Assembly (NCBI RefSeq): GCF_004010195.1
Contig: NC_057718.1
Coordinates: 75,381,300-75,445,299, forward strand
From: Chiloscyllium plagiosum
Lineage: Eukaryota
Reading direction: 5' to 3'
Length of the DNA: 64,000 nt
Made by a program: the position numbers and the translations under genes. This document shows, piece after piece, positions 13,860 to 63,484 of the stretch. Every line of letters starts with the position of its first letter. Within the stretch, counting starts at the first letter, position 1. The notes below the pieces were generated by a model. The model searched no databases. It saw only the letters and a list, made by a program, of their open reading frames with translations, and was not told the origin of the DNA.

Positions 13860-14150
13860 TGGCATGGTCATTCAATGGTTAACACTGCTGCCTCACAGCG
13901 GCAGGGACCCAGGTTCAATTGCAACCTCAGGCGATTCTCCCTGTGTCTGTGGGTTTCTCCTGGGTGCTCCAGTTTCCTCCCACAGTCCAAAGATGTGCAG
14001 ATTAGGTGAATTGGCCATGCAAAATTGCCCATAGTGTTCAGGGATATGTAGTTTAGGTGCATTAGTCAGGGGAAATATAAAAATGAAGTAGTAGGGTAGG
14101 GGGAATGGGATACCCTTCAGAGGGCCAGTGTGGACATGTTTGGCTTAACT
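13860..14150 (+). mobile_element. HE1-like SINE
   Basis: HE1 head and body. Confidence 0.85.
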
Positions 14151-14151
14151 T

Positions 14152-14465
14152 TTAGATTAGATTCCCTACAGTGTGGAAAAACAGGGCCTTTGGCACAACA
14201 AGTCCACACCGACCCTTCGAAGAGCAACCCACCCCCCTAATTTACCCCTGACTAATGCACCTAACACTACAGGCAATTTAACATGGCTAATTCACCTACC
14301 ATTGTTGTTCACCGAACTGGACATCGTTGGACTGTGGGAGGAAACCCACGCAGACACAGGGAGAATGTGCAAACTCCACACAGACAGTTGCCTGAGGCAG
14401 GAATTGAACCTGGGTCCCTAGCACTGTGAGGCAGCAGCGCTAACCACTGAGCCACTGTGCCACCC
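14152..14465 (-). mobile_element. HE1-like SINE, tail-to-tail with the previous copy
   Basis: Antisense HE1 sequence. Confidence 0.85.
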
Positions 14466-23590: not shown

Positions 23591-23915
23591 TCTGCCGAGG
23601 ACATGGAGTTCCTGGGCCTCCTTCACCGCCGCTCCCTCACCACCAGACGCCTGGAGGAAGAACGCCTCATCTTCCGCCTCGGAACACTTCAACCCCAGGG
23701 CATCAATATGAACTTCAACAGCTACCACATTTCCCCTTCCCCCACCTCATCCTAGTATCTCTCCACGCTTCAGGCTCACTGCCTTTATTCCTGATGAAGG
23801 GTTTTTGCCCGAAACGTCGATTTCGCTGCTCGTTGGATGCTGCCTGAACTGTTGTGCTCTTCCAGCACCACTGATCCAGATTCTGGTTTCCAGCATCTGC
23901 AGTCATTGTTTTTAC
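23591..23915 (+). mobile_element. 5'-truncated Penelope-like element inserted in the Gypsy integrase
   Basis: RRLEEERLIFRLGTLQPQGIN (GIY-YIG region C-terminus); 12-bp TSD CTACACAAGGAT at 23579-23590 and 23916-23927. Confidence 0.9.
23787..23822 (+). ncRNA. Minimal type-I hammerhead ribozyme motif
   Basis: attc-CTGATGA-a-GGGT-tttt-GCCC-GAAA-CGTC-gatt; catalytic core intact. Confidence 0.75.
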
Positions 23916-39358: not shown

Positions 39359-39812
39359 TTGCTGCTGCTGTCTGGGCCCAGGTTTGACTGGAGCTGTCTA
39401 CTGCTGCTGTCTAGGCCCAGTTCTGACCAGGGCTCTCTACTGCTGCTGTCTGGGACCAGCTCTGACTGGAGCTGTCTACTGCTGCTGTCTGGGACCAGCT
39501 CTGACTGGAGCTGTCTACTGCTGCTGTCTAGGCCCAGCTCTGATCGGGGCTGTCTACTGCTGCTGTCTAGGCCCAGCTCTGATCGGGGCTGTCTACTGCT
39601 GCTGTCTGGGCCCAGTTCTGACCAGGGCTGTCTACTGCCGTTGTCTGGGCCCAGCTGTGACTGGAGCTGTCTATTGCTGCTGTCTAGATCCAGCTCTGAC
39701 CGGGGCTGTCTACTGCCGCTGTCTAGGCCCAACTCTGACCGGGGCTGTCTACTGCCGCTGTCTGGGCCCAGCTGTGACCGGGGCTGTCTACTGCTGCTGT
39801 CTGAGCCCAGTT
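39359..39812. repeat. 39-bp minisatellite, about 11-12 copies
   Basis: Unit approximately GCTGCTGTCTGGGCCCAGCTCTGACTGGAGCTGTCTACT. Confidence 0.95.
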
Positions 39813-41709
39813 GCCTTGTTCTATGTTTCATTGAAAGGTTTGGCAGCTGTCTCAATGCTAACCCTGACACCACAGTCGCCTATGGCAGGGCTGCATTGTT
39901 GGTGTGCTGGAGTGGTTGCTACTGCTGCCTCGGCCCTGTCACCATTCAGTTACCTGACCAAGGGACTGGGAATTAAAGTTTATCTTCACCTAGACATGAC
40001 AACGGAGGCTGACTTGAAGGCGATGGCTAGTGTCGTCCGTATACTGGCCATTGTCACAGCTTCCAAATAAATGGAAAGGCGGTGTTTTTGCTTTGTCCCA
40101 GTTGGCAGTGCATCTGACCTTGGAGAAAGGGATCACTGTGCGGGGGACTTATTTACTTGTTGAACCGATGGAGGCTATGGCTCAAAAAGGTCACAATCTC
40201 TAATATCTCACCCTTCATTGCCAATGAGTTTCTCCTCCCCCATTTGCAGTTGGTGGGGCGGGGTGAGCAGTCAGGAATGGCATCCATCCCACTTGGACTG
40301 ATGGGACCCAGTCTGAAACATGTTGATTTCTTCCAGCGCCAGGTCTTCATTGAAGATCTTGGTCTGGGCGGTGGTGATGGAAGAGATATTTATCATGCTT
40401 CATGAGGGGACAGTCTACTGTGTTTCTGGATGGTGGATAGTGTGCAGTGTCACTAGTATAAGGAGGCAGGGCATGTGAGGAGGAATTGCCCCACCTTGAA
40501 GGTAACCAAAGCTATATCATTAGTTGCTGATGCCACTGCCGCTCCCACTCCCCCTGCCCCAGTGATAACACCTGGAGTGCTGCAAGCAAGGCCTAAGCTG
40601 GAGTTTGCTGTTACACTGGCCTCTGGTGGGGAGGAGTGTGGGTATTTTGCTGGAAAGAAGGTGAGGAGGAAGACAAAGCATCTTTAAACTGACCCCTGAA
40701 TGCGTCCCCTTGCACCCCTGAGCCAGTTGCGTTGAGATTGTGGTCAGAATCTTGGCCTGTCCCACTCTGGTGCAAAATATTCCTCTATGGACATGCCTGA
40801 TCACTCCAGCTTGGGAACCCTGAGCCCGACTCCCATCCTTCATCAGTTGTGCGCAATAATCTCAGCCCCTGACCCCACTCAGCTGAGCCTCGGAATACCG
40901 AGTTCAATCCCCATCTGTCTCCATCTGAGCCTGAGAATTCTCGGCCTGGTTCTGCACATGGGAATCCCGATCCTGTGACCAACCCATAGCCCCACCCTTC
41001 AATCATCTGATGGCGGGGATTCTGGAGCAGGATGGGAAATGATGAAGCTATCTTCCCTTACCTTGCCACACCCCCAGCCTTCCCTCATCCAGTTGTTTTT
41101 ATTGACTTGCTGGTGGGAAGGCACAAAATTCCCAAGAACACCGTGGGGTGTGGTGAGGAAAAAGAGACCACCATCATGACAAAGAAGAGTTGCCACTGCC
41201 TGCAGGGGGAGGACTTCCCTGTCACTAGAGTAAGGTCCTGCTCTTCCCCAGGGGAAAACCTGCAGCACCTCTTGTCCTTTCTTGTGTTGTGATGGGTCTG
41301 GAACCTTGGGGGTTGTAGCTGGTCCTCACACTGCCAAGGTCCCAGTGACCCCTGAAGACGAGCCAGAGATTTGAGAAGGCTGCAGTGCAGGTATTATAAA
41401 CCTTGCTGGGTTATCACCTGTTGGAGAGGAGGAAGGTGTTTCCCTCACTCTACCCTCCCAGACTGTTTTGCTGGGTACCTTGGACCTGAGGTAGGATCTT
41501 TTCCCTGAGAGGTCAGGTGATCTGGTGTCAGGAGAGGAGTGGGTCCCTGAGCCTCCACTAACCCATGACCCTGAACCTGAAGACCCTTCTGATGGAGTCC
41601 ACCAAGGAAGCCCCTGCCTATGACTCTGGGGGTGGTGCCACTGGGGGAGTGGAGCCAGCTGGTGGCACCGGGCCATCTCCCACTCTCACAGTGGGAGAGG
41701 GTACAGTAG

Positions 41710-41938
41710 TTGAAACTTTATTGCTGGAACAGCACAGCAGGTCAGGCAGCATCCAGGGAACAGGAGATTCGATGTTTCGGGCACAGGCCCTTCTTCGGGC
41801 ACAGGCCATTCCTGAAGAAGGGCCTGTGCCCGAAACGTCGAATCTCCTGTTCCCTGGATGCTGCCTGACCTGCTGTGCTGTTCCAGCAATAAAGTTTCAA
41901 CTTTGATCTCCAGCATCTGCAGACCTCACTTTCTCCTC
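41710..41938. mobile_element. Palindromic PLE-terminus element inserted in Tx1 ORF1
   Basis: About 89-nt inverted arms plus a 3' extension; 13-bp TSD GAGGGTACAGTAG at 41697-41709 and 41939-41951. Confidence 0.9.
41808..41843 (+). ncRNA. Minimal type-I hammerhead ribozyme motif
   Basis: Stem I ATTC/GAAT, CTGAAGA, stem II GGGC-CTGT-GCCC, GAAA, self-complementary ACGT stem III, GUC site at 41837-41839. Confidence 0.85.
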
Positions 41939-44900: not shown

Positions 44901-46120
44901 AATGAGAAAGATCAAGCAAACCCAAATGGATCCTTCTTGTGGTGGAGCAGTAGTGTCCCTGCACTTGGACAGGGAGACGCAGGTTGAAGTCCCAGCTGCT
45001 TCAGAGGTGTGTAATTGGCTTTCCCATGCATTTGTGGCCAAAAATAGAGGTTTCTCATCTTCTGCAGATAAAATGGAAGTTTTCTGCCTTCTTTGGCTAA
45101 AATGGAAAGCAAAATGGATGATTTACCATATTTTGCGTGCTAATGAACAACTCCTGTCCTTTCATCTCAGATATTACCACATACATTTGCTGCCTGCAGC
45201 TTTAAAGATGAATTTCACTAGCTTAATGGTTTTCCCTATTCTATCCAAGGGAAATAAAACTAAGTGCATGGTCTGCTTTTTCCAAAGCCATTGCTAACCT
45301 ATGGTGCAGCATTTAGTGACCCATATATTTGCACAAAGATCCCTTTGTTCCTCTACCCAAGCTAGATTTGCACTTACTAAGTAATAAATGATCACCTTAT
45401 TATTCCTGCAAAATACACCACTAATATCTTAAACTATATTTTTCCATTATTTGTTTACTCTGCAACTTTATTATTGTTCTCCTGTATTTTGTTAACAATT
45501 CTTCTTAGTATTATCACCCAAATGTACTGTTGGCCGCAATTTAGAAAATACCCTTTTGATTCCAAAGTTCAATGATTATTCTAATTGTGAACAGCATTGA
45601 ACCTCTCTCTGATCTGTGTGGAATGTCCACCCACTGACACTCTGAACGTGGGGTTTAGGAGCAGGAATAGGTGATTTAACCCACTTCATTTCCACACTCT
45701 GTCTTGAAACTAACTAGAAATCCAGTCTTCCACTTGTCCTCTGATTAAATTTTATTGGTTATTAATGGCTGGACTTTGAATGTCTGGATAAATTACATGG
45801 GGACTATGTGAATATTTCCCCTTATAAGAAAATGAGGTCTCCTGTTAAAGAATATCTAATATTTTAAGAAGAAGCCCCCCCATGACAGAGGTGAGAAGAA
45901 ATGATTTCTCTCAGAGCACCATCATCATGTGGGATTATCATGCCCAGTAAACAGTGCAGGCTGGGACATTGAAGTTATTCAAGACAGAGTTAGATGGATT
46001 TTTAAGAGACAAACAAGTCAATGGGTTTAATGGGAAAGTGAACTTGTGACCATAATCAGATTAGTCATAGTTAAAAATCACACAACACCAGGTTATAGTC
46101 CAACAGATTTAATTGGAAGC

Positions 46121-46158
46121 ACACTAGCTTTCGGAGCGACGCTCCTTCATCAGGTGAT
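46121..46158 (-). ncRNA. Mirror-image hammerhead motif on the minus strand
   Basis: Exact reverse complement of 46163-46200. Confidence 0.75.
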
Positions 46159-46162
46159 TGTG

Positions 46163-46200
46163 ATCACCTGATGAAGGAGCGTCGCTCCGAAAGCTAGTGT
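46163..46200 (+). ncRNA. Minimal type-I hammerhead ribozyme motif
   Basis: cac-CTGATGA-a-GGAGC-gtc-GCTCC-GAAA-GCTA-gtg; stem I CAC/GTG, AGCT stem III, predicted CUA site. Confidence 0.75.
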
Positions 46201-47022
46201 GCTTCCAATTAAACCTGTTGGACTATAACCTGGTGTTGTGTGATTTTTAACTTTGTACACCCCAGTCCAACACCAGCATCTCCGAATCAGATTAGTCATG
46301 ATCTCATTGAACGGTGGTGCAGGCTCCATGCTTACTCCTATTCCTAAGTTAGATGTTACTACTACAATCTTTCCATTACCACAGTTTGGTTAAGCAAGAT
46401 TTTTTCTTTTGAAACCCAGGCTGATTATTCTTTATCTTTTTTTTCCCATATATCTTCTTACATTTTCTGTTCAGATAAGGATTCCATTATTTTTCTTAAT
46501 GTCGATGTTAAATTGATTGCTGTATAATGAATTGAACATGGTCTGTTCCCCTCCTTAAATGTAGGAGTTATATTTTTCTAATGATTTATTAAATGTTTTA
46601 TAATAACTGTTATATTTTTCCCAGACTATTTCAATGTAAGTGGATGCAATTTATTGAGGCCAGGACGTTTTTCTCTTGGGGTTTGTTTAATCAGTACATG
46701 ACATAAAAAAATCTAATTGCTCAGTTTATCATTCAATACCATGTCCACCAATTTTATCACCTTGATAAATACAAAAACAAAGTAATTATTTAATATCCGT
46801 CATCATCCCATCATTATCTACACTATCAGGTTTATTCCTTCATAGTTTTAGTTTCATCAAAACTTTATAAATTGATGTACTTGAAAAGCATTTCACTATT
46901 TTGTCTTAGGTCCTCTTCTAATTGTTTATTGAATTTTCTCTAAATCTCCTTGAATTCTCTGATCATGCATTCCCTCTATTGAATGTAACCATCTTTTCTA
47001 ACTGGGAGACATGCCTTTATGT

Positions 47023-50887: not shown

Positions 50888-52600
50888 AGTCATTAAGGTC
50901 TACAGCTTGGAAACAGGCTCTTCAGCCTAACATGCCCACGCTGCCCAGTTTTCACAATTAAACTAGTCCTGTTTGCCAACATTTGGTCCATCTCTCTCCA
51001 TACCTGTCCCATCCATGTACATGTCCAAATGTTTCTTAAATGGCAAAATTGTACTTGCTTGCATCACTACCTCTAGTAGGCAGAAGTGGATACTGTAGAT
51101 ACTGGAGATTAGAGTAAGGATTGGAGAGGTGCTGGAGAAGCACAGCAGGTCAGGCAGCATCCGAGGAGCAGGAAAATCGACATTTCGGGCAAAAGCCCAA
51201 AGCCTGATGAAGGGCTTTTGCTCAAAACATCAATTTTCCACTACCTCTGTAGCCTGTTCCAGACACTTAACACCCTCTGAGAAAAAAGTGTCTGCGTGGA
51301 CCCTTTTATATCTCTCCCCTCTCACTTTAAACTATGCCCCCTAGTTTAAACACCCATACCATGGTGAAAACATGTTGGCAATATACCTTATCTATGCCTC
51401 TCATGATTGTATAGACCTCTATAAGGCCATTCCCTCAGTCTCCTATGCTTCAGGAAAATAAGTTCCTGCCCATCCAACCTCTCCTATAACTGAAAACTTC
51501 CGGTTCAGGTGCATCCTAGTAAATCTTTTCTATATTTGTTTCTAATTTAATAGCATTCTTTCTATAGTAGGACGATCAGAATTGCTTGCAGCACTCCAAA
51601 TGTAGCCTCACAAAGGTCTTGTACAGTTGCAACAAGACATACCAACTCCTATACTAAATGCTCTGACTGATGAAAGCAAGCGTGCCAAAAGACTTCTTCA
51701 CAACCTTGTCTACCTGTGACTCCACTTGCAAGGCACTATGAACCTGTACCCTTAGATTTCTTTGCTCAATAACACTCCCAAGGTCCTTTCGTTGACTGTG
51801 TAAGTTCTGCCCCTGGTCTGACTCACTAAAATGCAATACCTTGCATTTATCTAAACTGAACTCCATTTGCCATTCCTCAGCCCAACTGGCCCACTTGAAC
51901 AAGATGTCACCACATTGTCAGATAACCTTTTTTACGTCCACTCTACCACCGATCTTGGTGTCATGCGCAAACTTACTAACCATAACTCTTAAATTCCCAT
52001 CCAAATCATTTGTATAAATGATGAATAACAGTGGACCAGCAGCAATCCCTGTAGTACACTGCTGGTCACAGGCCTTCAGTCTGATAAATAATCCACTACC
52101 ACCACTGTCCATCATCTAATTGTCAAGTCAACTTTGTATCCAATTGGCTTGCTAAGCCTAGATCCCGTGAGATTTAACCTGACTCAGCAACCTATATATG
52201 GTACCTTGCCAAAGGCTTTGTTAAAGTCCATGTAGGCAACAGCTAATTCACTGCTCTCATCTAATCTTTTGGTCATCCTTTTAAAAAATTAGACCTCATG
52301 CATGAGACATAATTTCCCACACACAAAGCAATGCTGACTATCCCAAATGAGTCTTTGCCTCTCTAAATGCTTGTAGATCCTGTCTCTCAGAAGCCCCTCT
52401 AACAACTGACCAGAACAGACATTAGGCTCACTGGTCTGTCATTTCCAGGCATTTCCCTGCAGTTTTTCTCAAATAATGGCACAACATCAGCTACCGTCCA
52501 ACCTTCGGGCACTTCATCTGTGGCTGTCGATGTTACAAATATCTCCGCTAGGGGCCCTGCAATTTCCTCCCTAGCCTCCCATAAGGTTCTGGGATACATT
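50888..52600 (-). mobile_element. 5'-truncated CR1-like LINE
   Basis: YPRTLWEAREEIA, RPVSL, PLLFIIYTNDLD..KFAHDTK, WQMEF. Confidence 0.9.
51080..51238. mobile_element. Partly palindromic PLE-terminus element inserted in the CR1 3' region
   Basis: GGAAAATCGACATTTCGGGCAAAAGCCC versus GGGCTTTTGCTCAAAACATCAATTTTCC, with CTGATGA at 51204; flanking repeat CACTACCTCT(A)GTAG at 51065 and 51239. Confidence 0.8.
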
Positions 52601-61940: not shown

Positions 61941-63484
61941 TACAACCTCAAAACTAAGGCCCTAGTCATCAGCTCATTGTATCAGCTTGATGCCAAACTA
62001 AAGGGCATCAAAACTACTCTGCACAATAATGACTACCCTGATCAAGTTTGGTGTTTTGCATTTCTTGCGGTTGCAGGGGACGGTGCCGGGAGTGGAGGTT
62101 GGGTTGGTGGGGGGTGTGGACCTGACGAGGGAGTCACAGAGGGAGTGGTCTTTTTGGAACGCTGATAGGGGAGGGGAGGGAAATATATCCCTGTTGGTGG
62201 GGTCCGTTTGGAGGTGGCGGAAATGACGGCGGATGATACGCTGTATATGGAGGTTGGTGGGGTGGTAGGTGAGGACCAGTGGGGTTCTGTCCTGGTGGCG
62301 GTTGGAGGGGCGGGGCTCAAGGGCGGAGGAGCGGGAAGTGGAGGAGATGCGGTGGAGGGCATCGTCGACCACATCTGGGGGGAAATTGCAGTCTTTGAAG
62401 AAGGAGGCCATCTGGGTTGTACGGTTTTGAAACTGGCCCTCCTGGGAGCAGATGCGGCGGAGACGAAGGAATTGGGAATATGGGATGGCGTTTTTACAGG
62501 GGGCAGTGTGGGAGGAGGTATAGTCTAGGTAGCTGTGGGAGTCGGTCGGTTTATAGTAAATGTCCGTGTTGATTCGGTCACCCGAGATAGGAATGGAAAG
62601 GTCTAGGAAGGGGAGGGAGGAGTCTGAGACGGTCCAGGTGAATTTGAGGTCGGGGTGGAAGGTGTTGGTAAAGTGGATGAATTGTTCAACCTCCTTGTGG
62701 GAGCACGAGGCAGCGCCGATACAGTCATCGATGTAGCGGAGGAAATGGTGGGGGCTGGTGCCAGTATAGCTGCGGAAGATGGACTGTTCCACATATCCTA
62801 CGAAGAGGCAGGCATAGCTGGGGCCCATGCGGGTGCCCATGGCTACTCCTTTGGTTTGGAGGAAGTGGGAGGATTGGAAAGAGAAGTTGTTCAGGGTGAG
62901 GACCAGTTCAGTCAGTCGAAGGAGGGTGTCAGTGGAAGGGTACTGGTTGGTACGGCGGGAAAGGAAGAAGCAGAGGGCTTTGAGTCCTTCGTGATGGGGG
63001 ATGGAGGTGTACAGGGACTGGATGTCCATGGTGAAGATAAGGTCCCCACCACCAGGGATATATTCCCCTCCCCTATCAGCGTTCCGAAAAGACCACTCCC
63101 TCCGTGACTCCCTTGTCAGATCCAAACCCCCCACCAACCCAACCTCCACTCCCGGCACCGTCCCCTGCAACCCCAAGAAATGCAAAACTTGCGCCCACAG
63201 CTCCCCCCTTACTTCCCTCCAAGGCCCCAAGGGATCCTTCCGTATCTGCCACAGATTCACCTGCACCTCCACACACATCTCTATTGCATCCGCTGCACCC
63301 GATGTGGCCTCCTCTATATTGGGGAGACAGGCCGCCTACTTGCAGAACGTTTCAGAGAACACCTCTGGGACACCCGGACCAACCAACCCAACCACCCCGT
63401 GGCTCAACACTTCAACTCCCCCTCCCACTCCACCAAGGACATGCAGGTCCCTGGACTCCTCCATCGCCAGACCATAGCAAAACG

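Follow-up and report, generated by a model that had tools for sequence, protein, structure and literature searches.

Background

The sequence reported here is closest to the 5'-truncated inverted insertions of endonuclease-positive (EN+) Penelope-like elements (PLEs; Penelope/Poseidon, Neptune), in which pLTRs carrying a hammerhead are placed head to head, with a tail of 30-40 nt at one end and a target duplication, and whose parents have a reverse transcriptase (RT) with C-terminal GIY-YIG-type motifs (PMC3846280, PMC8557442). In the passages devoted to these insertions, the inversion is put down to self-priming or endonuclease resolution, and no class like the present one is described (PMC3846280, PMC8557442). 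For Poseidon_Ac, from the green anole, cutting and extension of both target strands are reported, the tail is bounded by two internal RT start sites, the hammerhead is dispensable for insertion and no RNA ends were seen at the hammerhead cut; the main text assumes multi-copy transcripts, and run-off at the cap and inverted products are not discussed there (Frangieh et al. 2024, PMC11167929).

Three other systems share features with the locus. The minimal hammerheads of metazoan PLEs, as presented by Cervera and de la Pena 2014 (PMC4209133), have the same core, an extra base before stem II, G10.1-C11.1, palindromic 15.2-16.2 and no stable stem III, and opposite-strand pairs of them, 100-700 bp apart, have been ascribed to truncated PLEs (PMC4209133). 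The non-LTR retrozymes, as outlined in a preprint (bioRxiv 10.64898/2026.07.22.740005), are likewise non-coding, derived from pLTRs and provided with a type-I hammerhead, but they are head-to-tail tandems with ribozymes on the same strand. In L1 twin priming, two target ends prime RT and inverted halves are end-joined, with a discrete duplication and an extra G at complete 5' ends; L1, however, initiates both at the poly(A) tail and at an internal position of a single RNA, which gives non-overlapping halves (PMC11702581). Here, both halves copy the same 5' leader.

The layout of inverted pLTRs, tail and duplication is thus already published, as are opposite-strand hammerhead pairs (PMC4209133, PMC3846280, PMC8557442). 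The present copies differ from the EN+ PLE insertions in their number, at least 900 forming one class, and in having minimal halves, of 90 and 130 nt, which end at a single site and bear an extra G there; they differ from the published hammerhead pairs in that the two cores are 14 nt apart within one perfect hairpin, and from the retrozymes in being single head-to-head units with no sign of self-propagation.

Results

Anatomy of the palindrome

The window analysed is a stretch of 64,000 nt of Chiloscyllium plagiosum DNA. Features of the palindrome found in it are given below by window coordinates; positions relative to the parent element are numbered from 0, the putative first base of the transcript, corresponding to 46161 on the minus arm.

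46054..46068, no strand: left copy of the target-site duplication, host DNA within an older repeat remnant
46069..46162, minus strand: short arm, corresponding to the parent pLTR from -1 to +92 (94/97 nt identical to copy L223)
46122..46156, minus strand: minimal type-I hammerhead motif, placed by symmetry with the plus copy; predicted cut 46125/46124
46159..46162, no strand: head-to-head junction at the putative transcript start, in a form shared by just 16 of 905 exact palindromic junctions
46163..46289, plus strand: long arm, corresponding to the parent from +3 to +129 (125/127 nt identical to L223)
46165..46199, plus strand: minimal type-I hammerhead motif; predicted cut 46196/46197
46208..46228, plus strand: poly(A) signal (46208-46213) and poly(A) sites +65/+68 (46225, 46228), mapped at the level of the family, not of this copy
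46253..46289, plus strand: putative PLE tail of about 37 nt between the two end clusters, placed from end-cluster positions and PMC11167929
46285..46299, no strand: right copy of the target-site duplication, whose first 5 nt coincide with the element end

The inverted arms (46069-46158 and 46163-46252) have one mismatch and lie 4 nt apart, as the preliminary description of this DNA had it, and the hairpin folding z-score of the palindrome is -26 against 200 shuffles. The 4 nt, described there as a loop, are element sequence, the left arm running to parent -1 and the right arm starting from +3. The G at 46162 may be either templated, as base -1 of the left arm, or an extra G preceding the right arm. 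An unpaired tail had also been recognised, with a length of 32 nt; its length is about 37 nt, because the element's tail extends over the first 5 nt of the right repeat, the parent match reaching 46289. For the same reason the perfect 15-bp duplication holds as an exact direct repeat, while the true duplication is 10-15 nt with a 5-nt element overlap. The outer end of the short arm falls in a proximal end cluster (+88 to +97), and the long arm, ending in a distal cluster (+124 to +134), reaches the A of the parent ORF start codon. The flank of the palindrome resembles other dispersed repeats.

MITEs have terminal inverted repeats at both ends, fixed ends and a fixed short duplication. The palindrome has an unpaired tail at one end, ends which vary by about 10 nt, a duplication of 10-17 nt among copies and a retroelement parent, and its identification as a MITE was rejected.

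Family census and parent element

A search with the 216-nt unit gave 1,453 candidates in the C. plagiosum genome (3.56 Gb), and all 40 of those scored match over nearly the full length. At least 905 palindromic junctions were detected genome-wide by an exact pattern spanning the centre, and about 1,640 by a looser pattern. The 105 palindromes analysed comprise the 30 best BLAST matches and 75 copies picked by position from the pattern lists.

Longer copies extend upstream, via a TATA-like motif and a 3' UTR, into the remains of an ORF for RT plus a putative endonuclease. For the parent search, 20 long loci were selected from 150 scored RT matches; no intact parent ORF was found among these 150 matches, the 20 long loci being inspected. 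Two copies, L222 and L223, have the arrangement pLTR-ORF-pLTR, the unit measuring about 3.44 kb; the classic inverted layout, with inverted and direct copies, was observed in L224, L215, L225 and others. The parent tail runs straight into the ORF ATG at +129. RVT_1 matches were obtained for four of five parent ORF pieces, and a Pfam search of the same pieces gave no GIY-YIG match. Reading the translations by eye revealed GIY- and YIG-like motifs with two cysteines between them, downstream histidines (CCHH) and an upstream CX4CxxC. By motif alone, under the criteria that Craig et al. give for these elements (PMC8557442), such features point to a parent of Neptune type; the extra Cys-rich linker, also read by eye, distinguishes it from Poseidon_Ac.

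The source of the palindrome is the pLTR of an element which carries a PLE RT ORF, and on these comparisons the palindrome is identified as a non-coding stub of a 3.4-kb Penelope-like retroelement of the C. plagiosum genome. The second of two options offered in the preliminary description, a stereotyped abortive PLE insertion, is supported by the finding of a parent with the same pLTR and with RT and endonuclease-like motifs, and by outer ends common to the copies.

Two further palindromes of this first family were observed in the window, one at 268-400, trimmed beyond both hammerheads, and one at 6924-7114, of an older subfamily. Elsewhere, seven loci on different contigs (L076, L077, L082, L085, L086, L089, L097) have shared sequence about 100% identical, in which the 3' end of the first family is fused to a disrupted ORF from another PLE type; they represent either a very young chimeric non-autonomous subfamily or trans-mobilisation.

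Outer ends, tail and target duplication

In 66 of the 75 pattern-selected palindromes, one arm ends at +85..102 and the other at +123..135, and among 174 arms of other loci the end positions form two peaks at these same places. A target duplication of 10-17 nt, one mismatch being allowed, was found in 90 of 95 copies with canonical ends. Target and element overlap by a mean of 1.6 nt per end (55 copies scorable), a modest microhomology, and the first five repeat bases of the window copy are such an overlap. The inverted head-to-head layout, with a one-sided tail of about 37 nt, lies within the 30-40 nt range of EN+ PLE insertions. In the in vitro reactions reported for Poseidon_Ac (PAc), cutting and extension occur on both strands, and the tail lies between the two internal RT starts (PMC11167929); by analogy with that system, which belongs to a different PLE clade, RT start sites would lie near +90 and +130. 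The Poseidon_Ac starts, in the account of Frangieh et al. (PMC11167929), are 111 nt or more inside the ORF, whereas the distal end lies here at the ATG.

Hammerhead motifs and predicted folding

The preliminary description had reported a hammerhead on each strand, and a motif count bears this out: the motif occurs once per strand in the window, with none expected by chance, the cores starting at 46168 (plus) and 46153 (minus). The plus motif consists of a 3-bp stem I, the core, an extra A, a 5-bp stem II and a palindromic 4-nt stem III, so that the features of a minimal type-I PLE hammerhead are all present (core, stem II, extra base at 9/10.1, palindromic 15.2-16.2, short stem I). An Rfam scan of the palindrome gave no match to a hammerhead family at the gathering threshold or at E<=10, as expected for a form without stem III. 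It returned just generic miRNA-hairpin and snoRNA models below their cut-offs, and a miRNA reading was rejected, these matches being a generic similarity to long hairpins.

It had also been foreseen that a read-through RNA would carry a ribozyme and its own antisense arm. The folding predictions agree and add that the ribozyme stem is then abolished: the predicted probability of hammerhead stem II is 0.985 in a single arm and 0.000 in a transcript of the whole unit, and the long hairpin is thus predicted to lock both hammerhead folds if the stub is read through. Minimum free energy co-folding of two single arms did not produce the hammerhead dimer, a prediction which is no test of the dimer. 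The exact motif occurs 13,810 times genome-wide and is intact in 90 of 149 arms; the hammerheads are probably passengers of the copied 5' leader.

A second PLE family and other features of the window

A palindromic stub of a second PLE family was found in the window at 41708-41937, with the same layout of 92-nt arms, tail, duplication and hammerheads. This family has 859 exact junctions genome-wide and keeps the hammerhead layout with different letters in stems I, II and III; a pair count on the hammerhead alignment of the two families, which are one column out of register, is uninformative. As an uncounted impression, several second-family junctions seem to end in an extra G.

Single arms or a decayed palindrome of the second family with hammerhead motifs were also noticed at 23791, 28482, 34603 (minus), 38997, 51130-51240, 55546 and 63698. 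A 445-codon open frame with an RVT_1 match (E 1.8e-7) lies at 62001-63335 on the minus strand. Inverted repeat pairs at 4620-5153, 9449-9642 and 14003-14298 are probably copies of a common SINE-like repeat in opposite orientations, and a 39-nt tandem array of 11.5 copies with 88% matches occupies 39362-39810.

The palindrome centre and the putative transcript start

Among 30 hammerhead copies taken by position, without selection for shape, 13 start between -6 and +8 of the 3.4-kb element. A TATA-like motif lies at -30, position 0 being 30 nt after it, and two long ORF-bearing copies likewise start at -2 and +1. At -1 the template has a C (5,444 arms), and 5 of 30 examined stop at -1 or -2. A base other than C occurs at -1 in 1,596 arms; by hand count, the first 100 listed contain 78 G, 15 T and 7 A. 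When 30 such non-C loci were inspected, 21 were found to have G, and 20 of these stop precisely at 0; an inverted partner was detected for 17. Six of the seven with T are long copies with a transition.

Over all loci retrieved, an extra G is present in 41 of 49 truncated arms where overlap with the partner cannot account for the base, a count which leaves aside 18 arms with partner overlap, 51 long arms and 48 truncated arms which are ambiguous in having C at -1. Among those of the 49 which follow an insert or host DNA, 24 of 31 have it (binomial p against 50% G, 1e-6 for the whole set and 2e-3 for this part). Some insertions (L037, L177, L178) have it on both arms. A strand jump might leave the extra G inside long copies; there, however, the counts (1 G, 6 T and 44 C) do not rise above noise. 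At complete 5' junctions of L1, the extra G is taken in the passages concerned to reflect the mRNA cap (PMC11702581). Because of the TATA spacing, the truncation peak and the extra G, position 0 is proposed to be a capped transcript start, and both arms would be run-off cDNAs.

One or two cDNAs

Palindromes might also arise if one run-off cDNA folded on itself and was copied back as the second arm. A kindred idea of self-priming, with an antisense template, has already been put forward in the text of Arkhipova et al. 2013 (PMC3846280). The commonest junction classes include perfect small palindromes, and rare variants are common to the arms of one insertion far above chance (13 of 48 twice-seen variants fall within the same insertion). 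At three subfamily sites, the two arms disagree in 13/75, 10/74 and 3/72 cases, against 33.5, 25.2 and 18.5 after shuffling and a background of 4.8% per site. The strong form of an origin from random RNAs of the family was dropped in view of this prevailing concordance. With two cDNAs, the concordance would require that the RNAs come mostly from one source copy, or that conversion occurs from arm to arm, and fold-back fits it equally.

The inner ends of the arms tell otherwise. The short arm extends closer to the centre than the long arm, by 2 nt or more, in 22 of 66 copies and in the window copy. It thus holds bases absent from the long arm, and fold-back of the long arm cannot produce these copies. 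The reverse was found in 14 and the arms are level in 30, and later deletions at the palindrome centre could blur the count of 22 versus 14. Also against fold-back, the commonest asymmetric junction is found equally often (4:4) in the two orientations relative to the tail, +90 is the end of unpaired arms too, both arms bear the extra G in the insertions named above, and in L295 (position 1500), a palindrome of the second family, the arms carry linked variants of two different subfamilies. Fold-back is on balance unlikely, and the simplest fit is a pair of cDNAs for which RNA of a single source copy usually served as template.

Position of the breakpoint

Ordinary random 5' truncation with inversion would need no link to the cap, if the centre were set by RT stalling at the hammerhead, or if long inverted insertions had later collapsed. 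Inverted pairs with their hammerheads 0.25-1.2 kb apart are indeed common, and the second family too breaks just 5' of the hammerhead (859 junctions). Stalling or deletion, however, gives no cause for a non-templated G at one exact position; RT meets the hammerhead before the stop site, not after; and the stop site lies 30 nt beyond the TATA-like motif. This explanation appears very improbable. No truncation peak was found at the hammerhead cut (+36/+37), where 1 of 174 arms starts at +35..+39, in a sample which is anchored on hammerhead-bearing loci and in which partner arms alone are informative. The palindrome centre seems to be tied to the cap, not to the ribozyme cut.

Variety of junctions

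The 75 sampled palindromes have 58 distinct junctions, some types recurring 2-4 times, and no flanks are shared between any two of them. Rare variants are shared by 2 of 80 same-junction pairs and by 126 of 5,380 other pairs. Partner arms are often trimmed to widely differing depths, down to the last tail bases. Because the junctions differ and copies with the same junction show no common descent, the unit is remade each time and is not self-propagating. Comparison of the copies genome-wide, proposed in the preliminary description for both the ends and the loop junction, showed that the outer ends are common to the copies and the junction is not. The breakpoints differ in detail yet cluster at one place, apparently the transcript start, which had not been foreseen.

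The first option of that description, a self-propagating, non-autonomous, retrozyme-like hairpin whose hammerheads cut its own transcript and which PLE proteins re-insert, fails on the breakpoint by which it was to be judged and is largely refuted and highly improbable: the high copy number, the common ends, the intact motifs and the recurrent junctions would suit it, but same-junction pairs show no excess of shared variants, neither a head-to-tail tandem with at least two same-strand hammerheads nor copy-from-copy descent was found, the unit has no promoter region, its ends do not lie at the ribozyme cut, and the hairpin is predicted to block the ribozyme fold.

Poly(A) sites in the pLTR

Poly(A) sites were mapped in one single-cell poly(A) run (X21) from a species with the family, possibly not C. 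plagiosum, the reads stemming from many copies and from host transcripts. Reads turning into poly(T) number 385 at +68 and 293 at +65 (477 and 380 at lower stringency). Both sites are 12-15 nt past an ATTAAA/AATAAA hexamer, in sequence which is not A-rich. At the level of the family, and in this one run, a functional poly(A) site is thus present in the pLTR, upstream of the two end clusters. No accumulation of read ends was reported in X21 at the hammerhead cut, a result which is no test of cleavage, and no pile-up of molecule starts was obtained; contigs X1 and X2, of uncertain kind, were left out of the evidence.

Discussion

Proposed mechanism

The stub is probably a product of twin target-primed reverse transcription: each of the two cDNAs would have run off its template at the capped 5' end, and the two would then have been end-joined. 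This reading draws on what is observed, namely the parent, the shared outer ends, the target duplication, the variable junction at a fixed place, the extra G and the poly(A) site; the start site, the priming and the joining are reconstructed from these. Transcription of the parent would begin 30 nt past the TATA-like motif in the pLTR, and the RT/GIY-YIG protein would make staggered nicks about 11-13 nt apart. Each 3' end would prime on RNA at one of two internal sites near the front (+90, +130), the difference between them being the tail. After 90 or 130 nt each cDNA would reach the cap and run off there, often with a C added opposite it. When synthesis does not continue on a longer template, the cDNA ends would be joined by means of templated inserts or short stretches of microhomology, followed by fill-in. 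Because it is without the TATA region and the ORF-side RNA, the stub is likely a dead end.

Significance

As an element, the stub, probably a minimal twin run-off PLE insertion, is real and abundant and of low interest; as evidence on mechanism it is of moderate interest. Taken as a sequence, it is a commonplace retroelement remnant, one of thousands of hairpins of its kind that will be miscalled in hammerhead screens or by miRNA predictors. The value of the stubs is that of a record of reaction intermediates. In the accounts of Craig et al. 2021 (PMC8557442) and Frangieh et al. 2024 (PMC11167929), the origin of the direct and inverted terminal repeats of PLEs is open and the later steps are unvalidated. 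The stubs would place the transcript start to the base and, together with the poly(A) site, lead to a specific model of twin priming, run-off and an optional jump, which the published anole in vitro system can test directly.

A more general rule can be suggested tentatively, with appreciably less confidence than the origin of the stub itself, by which PLE RT would work like a retrovirus on the chromosome. The pLTR would correspond to U3-R-U5, with the start at 0, the poly(A) site at +65/+68 and RT starts at +90/+130. Since the putative RT starts lie beyond the poly(A) site, RT on a monomeric transcript would start only near its 5' end; the monomer RNA would give a strong-stop cDNA, which would have to jump to the 3' repeat (R, 0 to +65) for the remainder to be copied, independently at both target ends. 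Run-off would then be the usual opening step, and long copies would depend on the jump. Retroviral minus-strand strong-stop DNA is the short cDNA which runs off the 5' end of the RNA; retroviruses prime it with a tRNA and off the chromosome, and in this the stub differs from it. No report linking PLE palindromes to the cap, the transcript start or a strong-stop step was found in a search of the literature. An alternative to the jump is read-through of tandem copies, as assumed by Frangieh et al., and the proposed origin of the stub holds under both. If true, the retrovirus-like rule would explain, in two families, the direct pLTRs, the inverted pLTRs, the one-sided tail and the palindromes, in which neither cDNA jumped.
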